Origin: the human T2T-CHM13v2.0 reference genome, Homo sapiens
Length of the DNA stretch: 64,000 bases
Assembly: GCF_009914755.1 (NCBI RefSeq)
Contig: NC_060935.1
Strand: one strand, 5' to 3'
Below are positions 2,069-7,490 of this stretch, piece after piece (the stretch's first letter is position 1; every line of letters begins with the position of its first letter). Position numbers and translations under genes: made by a program. The notes under the pieces are model-generated. The model had not been told where the DNA came from. It saw nothing but the letters and a program-made list of their open reading frames with translations, and did not search any database.

Positions 2069-2140
2069 ATGTTGGTGGGTACCCCCAACCTGCTGACACT
2101 GGATGAAGCTGATGCCACCTGGACCCTCATCAAGGATAAG
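2069..2140 (+). CDS. C11orf42: C11orf42 coding exon 1 (MLVGTPNLLTLDEADATWTLIKDK)
   Basis: ccaccATGt start, 72 nt, AAG|gtaggt donor, phase 0 into exon 2. Confidence 0.93.
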
Positions 2141-4633
2141 GTAGGTAAAGTAAGGAGGCTAAAGAGGAAGCAACGAAGTGTGACCTGCATGGGTCTCAGC
2201 AGCTTGTGAGTAGGAAGGGGTGGGAAGTCTGAAAACAATAATAACCAACATTTACTCACTGCTTCCATATGTGCCAGGCACTGCAGTAAAGTTATTGGCA
2301 CGAACTGCCCCATTTAATGACAACTACAAAAACAGTAAAAAAGGTTCACTGAAAAGCAACGTATAGGGAATTATGAGCAAAGAGGAGATACGCTAAGTCA
2401 GGGGTGAGACAGGAGATCAGGAAGGCTTCCTGGAAAGAGTGACATTCTAGCTAGGCAAGCAGGAGTTATTCACACAAAGAGGGAGAGGAGAACCTGACAA
2501 AAAGTGCTTAATAAATACCTGAATTAATGAGCATGGGAGGGTGGTGAGTGTATAGTAATTTAATAGTAATTAAATGTAGAGTATTTGTAAAAACAAGGAG
2601 AGGAAAAAGAACAACTCATATTTGAGAACTCCTAATAATCTTCTAGAGCAGAGTTCAAAGAAGCAGTGGTAAAAATAAAGCCAAAGAGATATAGGGGCTA
2701 GTCTTAGAACCAGGACTTCCTATAGAACCAGCTTCCTATAGAATCTGAACTTTATCTGAAACTCTTTCACAGATCTCCTCCACCTTAACTTCCACAAAAT
2801 AAGAAATTTGGATTTTGAGGCAAATTTGTATATTTTAAGGAGCAGGACAATCTCAGCTGTATCTGGGTTGCAGATATCCAACAAATCCTACCAAATCACT
2901 TTTCAGCTGCAGACTGGAAATTTCAGATCAGAGAATTTAGAATCAGATTCTATGTGATTTGAAGGAAGGTGAATTTAAAACATTCATAGAAGTCAGCCTA
3001 CCAGGCTTAAAAAAAAAAAAATCTTAAAGCAGTGCCTACCACACTCAAAGAAGATTTAATGGCATGCTGCTTCCATTCCAAATAGGGTAGCTGCTTACCA
3101 CAAAGGCCAGCTTCCCAGGGAAGCAAAAACTGGAGAGCTCAAGGTCTTCCCAAGTATTAGAGCAACTGGTTTCAGCAGTGTAGAAGGTTGGTCCTGGACT
3201 AGATCAAGCAGAATTAGATTGAAAATAAACAGTCTCCCACTATTAGAAAGCTATGCCATCTCTGAGTATCAGAAAAACTCACTATCCTATTTAAATTGAA
3301 AATTGTCAGGAAAATCGGGGTAGAGATATGCAGGATAAATCACTGGCATTACGGGGCAAATTCAAGGATTAGGTCACCTTTAAGTGACCTGGTTTCCTGT
3401 GTCCAAAACCACGGACAGTTTACTGAACATATGGTAAAAACATTTGGCTAAACAGAATGTGGCTCAAGAGCTCCACATTCAGAATTTGAAGCAACCAAGA
3501 GACATCTAGGAAAACAATATTCCACCATCACTTTCCTGGGATGCCCCTGGAAAACCTAAATTTGTGGGCCTAAGGTCCATATAATTTCTATGAAGAAGCA
3601 GAAGTTCAGTAGGAGCACATAGTAGTCTTAAATAGTGATTCTACCAAGAACACAGTCTCCCTAACAAAGAACCGAGCTCCTTATTTTTCCTATTTTAGGA
3701 TAACCACTGTGGCTGTCAAGGTTAAGGAGGGTTAGAATTAGACAACTTAATGCCTGTCAGCATATAGGAAGAGCGTATGGGGAATAAAGAGCCTCCAGCT
3801 AAACCAGAGATTCACGCTTTTAGCAGAAACTTGGATAATAAGCACCAGATATATTAAATGTCACACTCCTATCAGAGGGGCCTCTTCTAGAGACACTCCC
3901 ATTTGTCTTATTTGTGTAGGATCCTTGACACCAAAGGAGCAGTTAGTGTGAGATTCTGATGTCATGCTTGGTGCCTCTGATTTCATGGTCATGGGGCAAA
4001 GCATTGCATCCAAAAATGTCAACCCACCAGTGTTCTGCTCTCTCCCTGGAAACGCAACTGGTCCTTCTCAGAGCCCCACCCAAAAGGAAGTGTTTTCCAG
4101 TGAAGCAAAGGAGAAGGAATGATGGGAAACTGTCCCATGCAGACCACAAAAGAACATCAGTTATTCCTTCAGCCAGGTGACAAGACAGTAGTCTACAAGC
4201 TACCTCAGCTTATCCAAGGTGCAGATGCAACTCCATAGTTAGCTACCTTCCTCTTATGCTAGGAGGCAGTACTTCCAAAACAGCTTTGTAGAAAAAGCAG
4301 ATCAGCCTTAAGGAGCCACTGGTGAATTCTACCAGAAGGCCAACAAAGAGGGCAATGCCATCAGTAGGGGCATAGATGTGCGAAATTTGGTCCTGGAGGT
4401 AGGGAGTAGAGTACAGCACTGTAAGCACTGGGCTCAAATATAAGAGATGCCCAAAGAGGAAATTCTGTGTGCCCTTGCTCCCTAGTAGAGCAGAGAACCA
4501 GAAACATCAGCCACAAAATCCTGAATGGGTTGAAACCATACTTAAGTACAATTACTAGAGAGGCTCTTATAGGTTTCCCAATTAGTCATGAAATAAACTT
4601 TCCAGGGTTACCAACCCCAAAAAGGCCATGATG

Positions 4634-4678
4634 AAACAAACAAACAAACAAACAAACAAACCACACACACACACACAC
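4634..4678. repeat. (AAAC)n-(CA)n microsatellite
   Basis: Directly visible. Confidence 0.9.
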
Positions 4679-4900
4679 GATTAACTAAAATCCCTGAAAG
4701 TATACCGTAACTAACATTATAAAGATGAGGCCTCAAATTCCCTACAAGAACTACCCCTTGCAGCTAGGGTAGAAGGCATATACTATGAGGTAAGAGATAT
4801 GGTATAAGAATGGACATTCCAAATCTATTTCTGCGTAACCTACTATTGATTAAAGACATCACCCATGTAACCAGTCACCTAAGAAGAATCCTTAAAGATT

Positions 4901-5179
4901 CTTTTCTCTTTTTCTTGAGACTCTGTGGAGTGCAGTGGTGCCATCTCGGCTCACTGCAACCTCCGCTTCCCAGGTTCAAGCAATTCTCCTGCCTCAGTAT
5001 CATGAGTAGCTGGGATTACAGGCGTGTGCCACCACACCCAGCTAATTTTTCTATTTTTAGTAGAGACAGGGTTTCACCATGTTGGTCAGGATGGTCTCCA
5101 ACTCCTGACCTCAGGTGATCCACCTGTCTCGGCCTCCCAAAGTGCTGGGATTATAGGCATGAGCCAGGGTGCACAGCCG
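4901..5179 (-). mobile_element. Alu (AluS-type), antisense
   Basis: Reverse-complement Alu body; gattctttt on both flanks (TSD-like). Confidence 0.92.
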
Positions 5180-5344
5180 AGGATTCTTTTTTCCCTACCT
5201 CCTGAGTGACTAAGTTCTACTAATTCTATAACCTAAATATCTCTAATATCTTCCCTCACTATTTTAGTTCAGGACCTTATTATGCCTTGCCTGGAGTATT
5301 GCAATACTCTTATTTTATGACTTCCTATTAAAAATTAGCTTTCT

Positions 5345-5643
5345 GGCCAGGCGCGGTGGCTCACATCTGTAATCTCAACACTTTGGGAGGCTGAGGCAGG
5401 CGGACTGCCTGAGCTCAGGAGTTCAAAACCAGCCTGGGCAACAGAGTGAAACCCCATCTCTACTAAAAATACAAAAAACTAACCAGGTGTGGTGGTGGGT
5501 GCCTGTAGTTCCAGCTACTTGGGAGGCTGAGCCAGGACAATCACTTGAACCCAGGAGGCAGAGGTTTCAGTGAGCCGAGATCGCACCACTGTACTCCAGC
5601 CTAGGCGACGAAGGAGAACCGACTCAAAAAAAAAAAAAAAAAA
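5345..5643 (+). mobile_element. Alu (AluS-type)
   Basis: ggccaggcgcggtggctcac...poly(A); TSD aaattagctttc. Confidence 0.95.
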
Positions 5644-6297
5644 TTAGCTTTCAGAAACACCTATCTGATCCTGTTCCTCCTACCCAGAGGCCTTCAGGCG
5701 GCTTCCCACTGCCTTCAGGACAAAATTCACTTGACATACACACAAGCCTTTCATAATCTAGTTCCTGTGTGCCTTTCCCTCCTCATACCATACATACCAG
5801 CAATATAAAATTATGTGTTCCTAAATGTGCCCCCCTTGATTTGTAAATTCAAGTTTTTTCACCGACTCTTATGCCTGAATTGACCATTCTCCTACCTAGA
5901 TAATTGCTTCAAAACTCAAGTATCACCATCTAGAAACCTTCCTTGATCCTCTTTCCATGAAAGGTAAAGACTGTTCAATCACTTCCTGTCTCCTTCACAC
6001 CTTGCTCTCTATTAATATTTTACATAGCAGACTGTTTACATTTTTGTGTTCTCCAGTAGACTAAACTATATTAGGACAAAGACAAAGTCTCATTCTTTTA
6101 TGTTTTCCCAGTACTTAGATAGTTTGACACGTAAACATTCAAGGTTTTGCTGCCGGAGAGCTGGGAGGTAAGCAGAAAGCATAAATCTGAACACATTATA
6201 GAGATGTAACTGAACGTGAACCTGGGGGTCAATTTAAAGTAGGCAACCAGTTAACTTCTGACCCTAAGTCCCTGACCTATAAACTGGCCACCTGCAG

Positions 6298-7096
6298 GTC
6301 ATCGAGGAGCACTTTGGGCCCAATGCAGTAGCAGTACCTTTCCTGTCAGATGCAGCCTGCTATGACCTACTGGGTGTGCTGGTAAAACAGTCCCGCCCAG
6401 CCCATACCCGCCTGGCTTTGCCAGGTCGGCAGGGCCGGAGGGCACTGAAACCAGTGGGGCCACTACCAAGCCTCCTGGAGCAGGCAGGATCTGAGGGTGC
6501 CTTCGCCCACTGCACTCGGGAATACTCACCAAATGGCCGAGCAGAGAGAGCCTATGAAGAGACGCGAATGTTGGATGGACAGCCCTGCAAGATCCGCCTA
6601 CATATGGGTGACCTGCGCAAGAAGGTTGCCTTCCTGTTGCTGCCACCAGGGCAGGTGAGCCTACAGCAGACTCTTCCCTGGCTCCGAAGCACCCACAGCA
6701 TCTATGTCATCTACCAGGTCTTCTCTTGTTCCTGGCTGCAGCTGGGGCTGACGTCTACAGCCCGTGAGCCCCAGCTCCTCCGGCTACTTCGGTCATTACC
6801 TGTTGCCTTCTCCTGCCTCAAGTTTTCACTGCAGTCTAAGGGCGTGCTGGGACCACAGAAGCCTCTCACTAAAGACCCATTGCCCCATGGGGCCAACTGG
6901 GTCAGACCCAACCTCAGCATCATGCCGCCTCTGGCCCCCACATCAGCATCTGCTGATACAACTGAAGCTGCTGATGTGCCCCCACCTGTCCCAGCCCCAC
7001 CTACGCCACCTCCCCAGGAAGGGCCAGAGGACAAACCCACCAGATTCTCCTACAAGGGCCGAAACCCCTTCTGGAGGGGGCCCCAGATACTGTCAG
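6298..7096 (+). CDS. C11orf42: C11orf42 coding exon 2 (VIEEHFGPNAV...RGPQILS)
   Basis: ctgcag|GTC acceptor, 799 nt open frame (ORF 6376..7209), TCAG|gtacta donor. Confidence 0.95.
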
Positions 7097-7359
7097 GTAC
7101 TACTAGGGGAAATGATGATGAGATGGATGGGAGGGACAAAGTGAAGGAGGGAGAAGGCATGAGAATTAAGTATGTGAGGAATCCATTACTCAGCACAGGG
7201 CTCTGGTGAAAGAGATGGAATGAGGGAGACTGGGGAGGGTGAGATGGAATGAGGAGGCCCTAGGAAGGGGATTGGGATGGCACAGAGGACCAGAGGGAAA
7301 AGCTAGGGGGGGAAAAGACCAGCCATGAGTCAAGCTGTGACTATCCCCAACCCTGGCAG

Positions 7360-7490
7360 AGAACTGGCTCTTCAGCCCCCGCAGCCCTCCACCAGGAGCC
7401 CAGGGTGGGGGCCCCAGGGACCCCGACGGGCACTCCATGTCCCTGCCCCTGCTGCAGGGTCTATCCTCAGAGTTCGACAGTGACGACTGA
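7360..7490 (+). CDS. C11orf42: C11orf42 coding exon 3 (ENWLFSPRSPP...SEFDSDD*)
   Basis: ggcag|AG acceptor, TGA at 7488-7490; total CDS 1002 nt = 333 aa. Confidence 0.93.

Follow-up and report, generated by a model that had tools for sequence, protein, structure and literature searches.

Does the human gene C11orf42, carried on a 64,000-nucleotide stretch of the T2T-CHM13v2.0 reference genome (contig NC_060935.1; the whole of that stretch is hereafter termed the window), encode a divergent gasdermin, and could its product form membrane pores? An earlier note, made from the letters of the window, had proposed that the protein is a cryptic gasdermin-N domain lacking the autoinhibitory C-domain, and that it acts either as a pore former or as a membrane binder. 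On the grounds of its fold and its homology, the analysis described here places C11orf42 within the gasdermin superfamily, and yet outside the pore-forming gasdermins as judged by their characteristic features: the computed results are a gasdermin-N fold, detectable homology, deletion of the second hairpin, a shortened and charged first hairpin, and no C-domain.

Fold, homology and hairpins

The coding sequence of C11orf42 comprises three exons with GT/AG ends and 333 codons plus a stop (Table 1), in agreement with the spliced protein of 333 residues described in the earlier note; the four gasdermin-like blocks quoted there lie in order at residues 17-55, 74-85, 146-165 and 191-202. The best 19-residue hydropathy window averages 1.66. 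A gasdermin profile was assembled from 19 of 120 listed proteins, representing GSDMA, GSDMD, GSDME and pejvakin, without GSDMB, GSDMC or invertebrate sequences. When 77 tetrapod rows of C11orf42 were aligned to that profile with HHalign, only blocks 1 and 2 were matched, at a probability of 10% and a score of 27.9, the maximum in 100 block shuffles being 21.9. A profile of the divergent family, comprising 53 near-complete, single-domain members (16-38% identical to the cluster representative P0002) and 11 tetrapods, aligned to gasdermin-N over 186 columns at a probability of 94% and a score of 53.3, and placed all four blocks opposite the gasdermin segments that had been picked by eye; the by-eye register is thus reproduced once divergent members are included. 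The corresponding controls scored 11.7 (reversed profile) and 13.4 (C-domain profile), and none of 50 block shuffles exceeded 23.6.

Against single gasdermins, the family profile scored best with pejvakin (19-21 bits), followed by GSDMA, GSDMD and GSDME (1-13 bits; decoys 5.8), and within the core of block 1 (residues 31-55) the identities are 11 of 25 for pejvakin, 7 for GSDME, 4 for GSDMD and 2 for GSDMA. Pairwise scoring of the blocks was weak, with the best offset being wrong for block 2 in all four gasdermins and for block 4 in three of the four. HMMER searches of the PDB (phmmer and hmmsearch, three queries) returned no gasdermin, the gasdermin Pfam models matched none of 69 orthologs and none of 69 divergent proteins, and the ESM Atlas yielded no usable match; the profile match that the earlier note had named as a check is obtained with HHalign against our own gasdermin profile, and not with HMMER or Pfam.

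Comparison of predicted models of C11orf42 with solved structures (by Foldseek for the axolotl model) revealed the gasdermin-N fold across the whole domain, as had been anticipated. The palm fold is intact over 189 residues, with 8-17% identity to gasdermins in the structural alignments, and the closest structural match is an N-domain-only gasdermin from Trichoplax. Taking fold and profile evidence together, we regard the assignment of C11orf42 to the gasdermin-N fold, by homology, as nearly certain. Just beyond the fold lies a conserved stretch (residues 218-229, positions 6877-6912) with an invariant Trp225, and alignments to two autoinhibited bacterial gasdermins stop at model residues 228-229 (chain 259-266); these alignment end points hint that the stretch may cap the lipid-binding face as an inhibitory mini-cap.

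Of 2211 candidates in a protein search, 96 proved to be relatives, spanning primates to alligator; a profile search that scored 8000 proteins recovered 105, among them the additional ostrich, axolotl and caecilian, and no gasdermin appeared among those 8000 at E values up to 1. Conservation of the blocks among orthologs had been set beforehand as a point on which the gasdermin reading might fall. Because mammals and sauropsids agree better in the blocks (mean identities of 0.68, 0.60, 0.56 and 0.81 in a 69-row alignment) than in the stretches between them (0.19-0.54), that test does not refute it.

The gasdermin pore is described in the accessible text of PMC12547243 as requiring four strands, arranged as two hairpins, from each subunit, with lipids bound through helix alpha1 and the beta1-beta2 loop. 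Pore formers are characterized by a pair of amphipathic transmembrane hairpins (beta3/beta5 and beta7/beta8), which are not present as such in C11orf42. Measured between fixed anchors, the hairpin 2 span is 25, 26 or 29 residues long across the 77 orthologs (26 in the primate protein) versus 43-54 in five gasdermins (49 in GSDMD, 45 in GSDMA, 54 in GSDME and 43 in pejvakin), which bears out the earlier observation that the stretch between blocks 3 and 4 is about 20 residues shorter. The finger itself is a turn of 7-8 residues, versus 24-35 in 11 gasdermins, and becomes a two-residue turn in the axolotl model; the position of GSDMD Cys191 falls inside the deleted part. Among the divergent members the span is 24-28 residues in 50 of 53, and 31, 35 and 35 in the others. 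Two of these, P0258 and P0260, exceed the rest by about 10 residues (span 35) and remain below gasdermin length.

Hairpin 1 is reduced less than hairpin 2, with 22-23 residues from its tip to a core proline versus 25-28 in gasdermins, and its strands number 17 and 16 residues in the axolotl model. Glu112 and Arg114 on this hairpin are invariant in all 77 rows, and Glu111 is retained in 76. All 11 gasdermins have a best lipid-facing side that is free of charge on this hairpin, compared with 14 of the 77 orthologs and 20 of the 53 divergent members; the median hydropathy of that side is 2.1-3.2 in gasdermins, 1.76 in the orthologs and 1.58 in the divergent members. Because the second membrane-spanning hairpin is lost, pore formation by C11orf42 is unlikely, and the proposal of a pore former is not supported, while the alternative offered with it, that of a membrane binder, is plausible. 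The protein very probably cannot build the canonical barrel and is non-lytic; a literature search found no cell or liposome permeabilisation assay of C11orf42.

Of the surfaces by which gasdermins contact lipids, the basic, hydrophobic-tipped beta1-beta2 loop is present by composition: its net charge is at least +3 in all 77 tetrapod rows and a loose hydrophobic-pair pattern, likewise a matter of composition, occurs in 74, although the loop sequence itself is poorly conserved (0.19 mammal-sauropsid identity). Helix alpha1, modelled at residues 11-29, is not basic; the median net charge of residues 12-30 is -3 in tetrapods, versus 0 to +1 for a window of 15-16 residues in six gasdermins.

The helical autoinhibitory C-domain that follows a cleavable linker in GSDMA-E is absent, and its place is taken, as had been noted, by a proline-rich and apparently disordered tail. 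Residues 211-333 are 22% proline, the predicted local distance difference test (pLDDT) score of the tail is mostly below 50, with low confidence in both predicted models, and HHalign produced no alignment of the tail to a gasdermin C-domain profile (0.1%).

Family breadth and relation to known gasdermins

When 1.84 billion cluster representatives (50% clustering) were searched exhaustively, 98 matches were obtained, 87 of which are new and unnamed; the 69 that were scanned against Pfam, the 18 shortest fragments having been left out, all match DUF4663, 67 of them above the cut-off. Searches for close relatives of one divergent member each found none in prokaryote genomes (queried with P0278) or in viral contigs. 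A tree of 71 rows, obtained by a quick maximum-likelihood search (midpoint root, long branches, seven gasdermins, without GSDMB, GSDMC or invertebrate gasdermins), places the seven vertebrate gasdermins on one long branch (Shimodaira-Hasegawa-like approximate likelihood ratio test, SH-aLRT, 99), and joins 11 named tetrapods and 10 unnamed rows in one group (SH-aLRT 99). A further 43 unnamed rows fall outside the tetrapod group, on branches deeper than the separation of GSDME, pejvakin and GSDMD.

GSDMA, GSDMD, GSDME and PJVK have four N-domain introns in common (in GSDMD, after residues 72, 137, 193 and 227), none of which is present in C11orf42, where a single exon encodes residues 25-290. 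Intron loss, testis expression and the best block 1 match might suggest a retrocopy of pejvakin; that origin is less likely because of the deep branches outside the vertebrate cluster and the separation of the gasdermins on a long branch. We infer from these sequence comparisons that DUF4663 and the gasdermins are old sister families, whose separation may predate the vertebrates. The family part of the result (87 further matches, deep branches and a short hairpin 2 throughout) is well supported.

Several members of the family are unusual. P0229, P0232 and P0250 carry long extensions, in which no Pfam domain exceeds the cut-off; P0268 and P0279 match the family profile in several stretches and may contain tandem copies; P0313 additionally matches an OTU protease, and P0230 matches a reverse transcriptase in part, perhaps as a gene-model artefact. 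A well-supported subgroup of 17 unnamed members (including P0261, P0263, P0266, P0267, P0269, P0274, P0275, P0277, P0278, P0280, P0285 and P0288), mostly 215-265 residues long and with little or no tail, may represent a lineage-specific expansion.

The core finding is already in print as a prediction. A 2022 methods paper (PMC8986115) reported a predicted gasdermin fold for C11orf42 that lacks the membrane-penetrating regions, suggested a possible scaffold role, placed the protein in a tree close to the common gasdermins' precursor, and gave an identity of 1% with no link detected at the sequence level; the supposition in the earlier note that structure surveys might have recorded the fold was thus correct. 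Relative to that report, the present analysis adds a sequence-profile link (HHalign, 94%), resolves the loss into a deletion of hairpin 2 and a short, charged hairpin 1, and extends the same hairpin loss to dozens of divergent members; neither the breadth of the family nor its family-wide hairpin loss was found in a literature search. The accessible part of a 2026 gasdermin review counts six human members and makes no mention of C11orf42.

Pejvakin (PJVK/DFNB59), which was non-lytic in HEK293 assays (PMC8742441), resembles C11orf42 in having a gasdermin-N domain with no helical repressor domain. Unlike C11orf42, it retains the gasdermin introns and hairpin regions that are long (a span of 43 for hairpin 2), and the tree does not group the two, the seven vertebrate gasdermins standing apart. 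GSDMA-E (PF04598 and PF17708) share with C11orf42 the palm fold, the order of the four blocks and a basic beta1-beta2 loop, whereas C11orf42 lacks their C-domain, hairpin 2 finger, four introns and Pfam match, and has an acidic alpha1. The Trichoplax adhaerens gasdermin (PDB 8JYV/8JYW), as far as its available description goes, forms 44-mer pores that are restrained by beta1-beta2 loop disulfides; the C11orf42 domain is about 35 residues shorter, and ten loops compared contain no conserved cysteine. The analogy drawn earlier to compact fungal and bacterial gasdermins fits loosely, in that those proteins form pores (PMC12547243, in the portion available, and PDB pore entries) and the C11orf42 tail is about 100 residues long; the short inhibitory peptide of the barrel-forming bacterial gasdermins and fungal RCD-1 has no demonstrated counterpart in C11orf42.

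Proposed role and its alternatives

The interpretation that we favour, at somewhat better than even odds, is that C11orf42 is a barrel-less gasdermin homolog that sits on acidic vesicle membranes by means of its basic loop, and is linked to SNX-BAR/retromer trafficking in spermatids. A distant gasdermin-N homolog that has lost its second membrane-spanning hairpin, and is thus likely non-pore-forming, would probably attach to the vesicles of round spermatids as a peripheral membrane protein and act there as a scaffold or adaptor; the available text of PMC8564638 places C11orf42 expression in these cells (in line with an earlier guess of a germ-cell role). The basic beta1-beta2 loop would bind acidic lipids, palm domains may line up with one another side by side without insertion, and the conserved tail motifs may attract proteins of the trafficking machinery, for example the SNX-BAR/retromer subunits that have been reported with C11orf42. 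With no barrel to restrain, neither an inhibitory C-domain nor its cleavage would be needed.

Several points weigh against this interpretation. The SNX/retromer link, as far as the source material available extends, stems from high-throughput interaction mapping done in somatic cell lines, and the structural evidence comes throughout from predicted models. Ligands of SNX-BAR proteins (the PX domains of SNX5/6) carry a bipartite SNX-BAR-binding motif (SBM) of type I or type II (PMC7082075); the strict patterns are absent from the human tail, where the spacer of 16 exceeds the limit by one, and a version relaxed by one residue, although present in 13 of 22 mammals, arises by chance in 9.6% of 5000 shuffles. 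The SBM was therefore rejected as a feature of the tail. Hairpin 1 is shorter by just 3-6 residues per strand and retains one partly hydrophobic face, no more than 29 of the 53 divergent members have a loop charge of at least +3, with 4 having a negative one, and the acidic alpha1 takes away one of the two main lipid-binding sites.

A bolder extension, tentative and less likely than not, is that DUF4663 proteins form a coat, with non-piercing arcs or rings assembling on endosomal membranes together with SNX-BAR/retromer and, in mammals, remodelling spermatid membranes, as the work of an ancient gasdermin sister family. Somewhat unlikely in its turn is a soluble, probably monomeric protein-binding module that neither binds lipid directly nor oligomerises, and reaches vesicles through its partners. 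The acidic alpha1, the variable loop charge among divergent members, the invariant charged residues of hairpin 1 (which resemble a protein-binding surface) and the conserved linear motifs of the tail would all suit such a module; retention of the basic loop in 77 of 77 tetrapod rows, despite a cross-group identity of 0.19, argues against it, since a charge kept while the sequence drifts suggests selection on that charge.

It is improbable that C11orf42 is a decoy, entering arcs of true gasdermins through its palm, stalling the pore for want of hairpin 2, and so protecting germ cells from lytic death. An intact palm with the insertion finger removed, together with spermatid expression, is what such a decoy would look like; an identity of only 8-17% to gasdermins, however, makes matching interfaces doubtful, no gasdermin is named among the C11orf42 partners in the reports as available, and the family forms its own deep branch. 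We give similarly little credence to a cryptic pore former or membrane perturber, in which removal of the tail or another trigger would allow hairpin 1 to insert by itself and create small or lipid-lined lesions. The closest structural match is indeed a pore-forming, N-domain-only gasdermin, the hairpin 1 strands of the axolotl model reach 17 and 16 residues, and some bacterial gasdermin alignments reach the possible inhibitory cap site at model residues 228-229 (as alignment ranges); yet two of the four strands that each subunit must supply to a barrel are missing, Glu112 and Arg114 are invariant on the remaining hairpin, the region of GSDMD Cys191 lies inside the deletion, and that deletion is family-wide. 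Convergence or a modelling artefact, with which the lack of HMMER and Pfam matches and of all four shared introns would agree, is very improbable and already largely refuted.

Were the favoured interpretation of a barrel-less vesicle protein correct, C11orf42 would be a second human non-lytic gasdermin-fold protein beside pejvakin, and the broad family to which it belongs would be one in which binding to membranes is uncoupled from the making of pores. It would provide a natural test case for a gasdermin palm without fingers and a candidate for membrane trafficking in spermatids, and would allow Pfam DUF4663 to be named.

Gene structure and feature coordinates

The introns of C11orf42 lie at residues 24/25 and 290, and a Pfam scan of the exons gave DUF4663 (PF15668) as the sole match, at 309 bits versus a gathering cut-off of 25. 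An insertion in the alligator model P0097 and a different N-terminus in the caecilian model P0106 fall exactly at the 24/25 junction, which suggests that intron 1 dates back at least to the origin of the tetrapods. No second DUF4663 gene was found in T2T-CHM13v2.0, where C11orf42 is present as a single copy. Among the tail motifs listed in Table 1, NPF is of the type recognized as a ligand by EH domains.

Table 1. Positions within the window, and encoded residues, of C11orf42 exons, domains and motifs
Feature	Positions	Strand	Residues	Remarks
Coding exon 1	2069..2140	+	1-24	Helix alpha1, first half; phase-0 intron comes next
Gasdermin-N fold domain	2108..6882	+	14-219	Crosses intron 1
Coding exon 2	6298..7096	+	25-290	Remainder of gasdermin-N and most of tail; internally intronless; Pfam DUF4663 E 5e-92
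Block 1 core	6316..6390	+	31-55	Aligns to gasdermins without gaps; pejvakin best
Beta1-beta2 loop	6385..6450	+	54-75	Basic, small hydrophobic patch; putative lipid anchor
Block 2	6445..6480	+	74-85	Strand beta2 and the short helix after it
Hairpin 1 finger	6544..6609	+	107-128	Turn at 117-118; return strand 3-6 residues shorter; invariant charges
Block 3	6661..6720	+	146-165	Runs into core strand
Hairpin 2 stump	6733..6786	+	170-187	Turn and two short strands; transmembrane part gone
Block 4	6796..6831	+	191-202	Core strand; highest conservation of the four blocks
Proline-rich tail	6913..7487	+	230-333	Low confidence; where a C-domain would be; crosses intron 2
NPF motif	7063..7071	+	280-282	27/77 rows, including 26/30 mammals and the caecilian
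Coding exon 3	7360..7490	+	291-333 and stop	End of tail
W-[LP]-F motif	7365..7373	+	293-295	58/62 rows having the canonical end
SMSLPLL motif	7434..7454	+	316-322	Acidic end follows; 61/77 rows, mammals to amphibians

The protein encoded in the window differs from P0002, which bears a chimpanzee label, at four residues (176, 242, 283 and 333); at the third of these, directly after NPF, the window protein has Trp283 where most mammals have Arg. A literature search of main texts found no knockout paper under the mouse name, Gm5901.

Upstream of the gene, an octamer resembling a cyclic AMP response element (CRE), TGATGTCA, occupies positions 1961-1968, approximately 45 bases before the annotated start at 2010; we take it to be one mismatch from the CRE consensus, which would presumably fit CREM-driven expression in spermatids. 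On the 3' side an AATAAA signal lies near 7553, and C11orf42 and FHIP1B are arranged tail to tail with 210 bases between them (7583-7793). Judging by its name, we assume FHIP1B to be a trafficking-complex gene, and its adjacency to C11orf42 is probably a coincidence.

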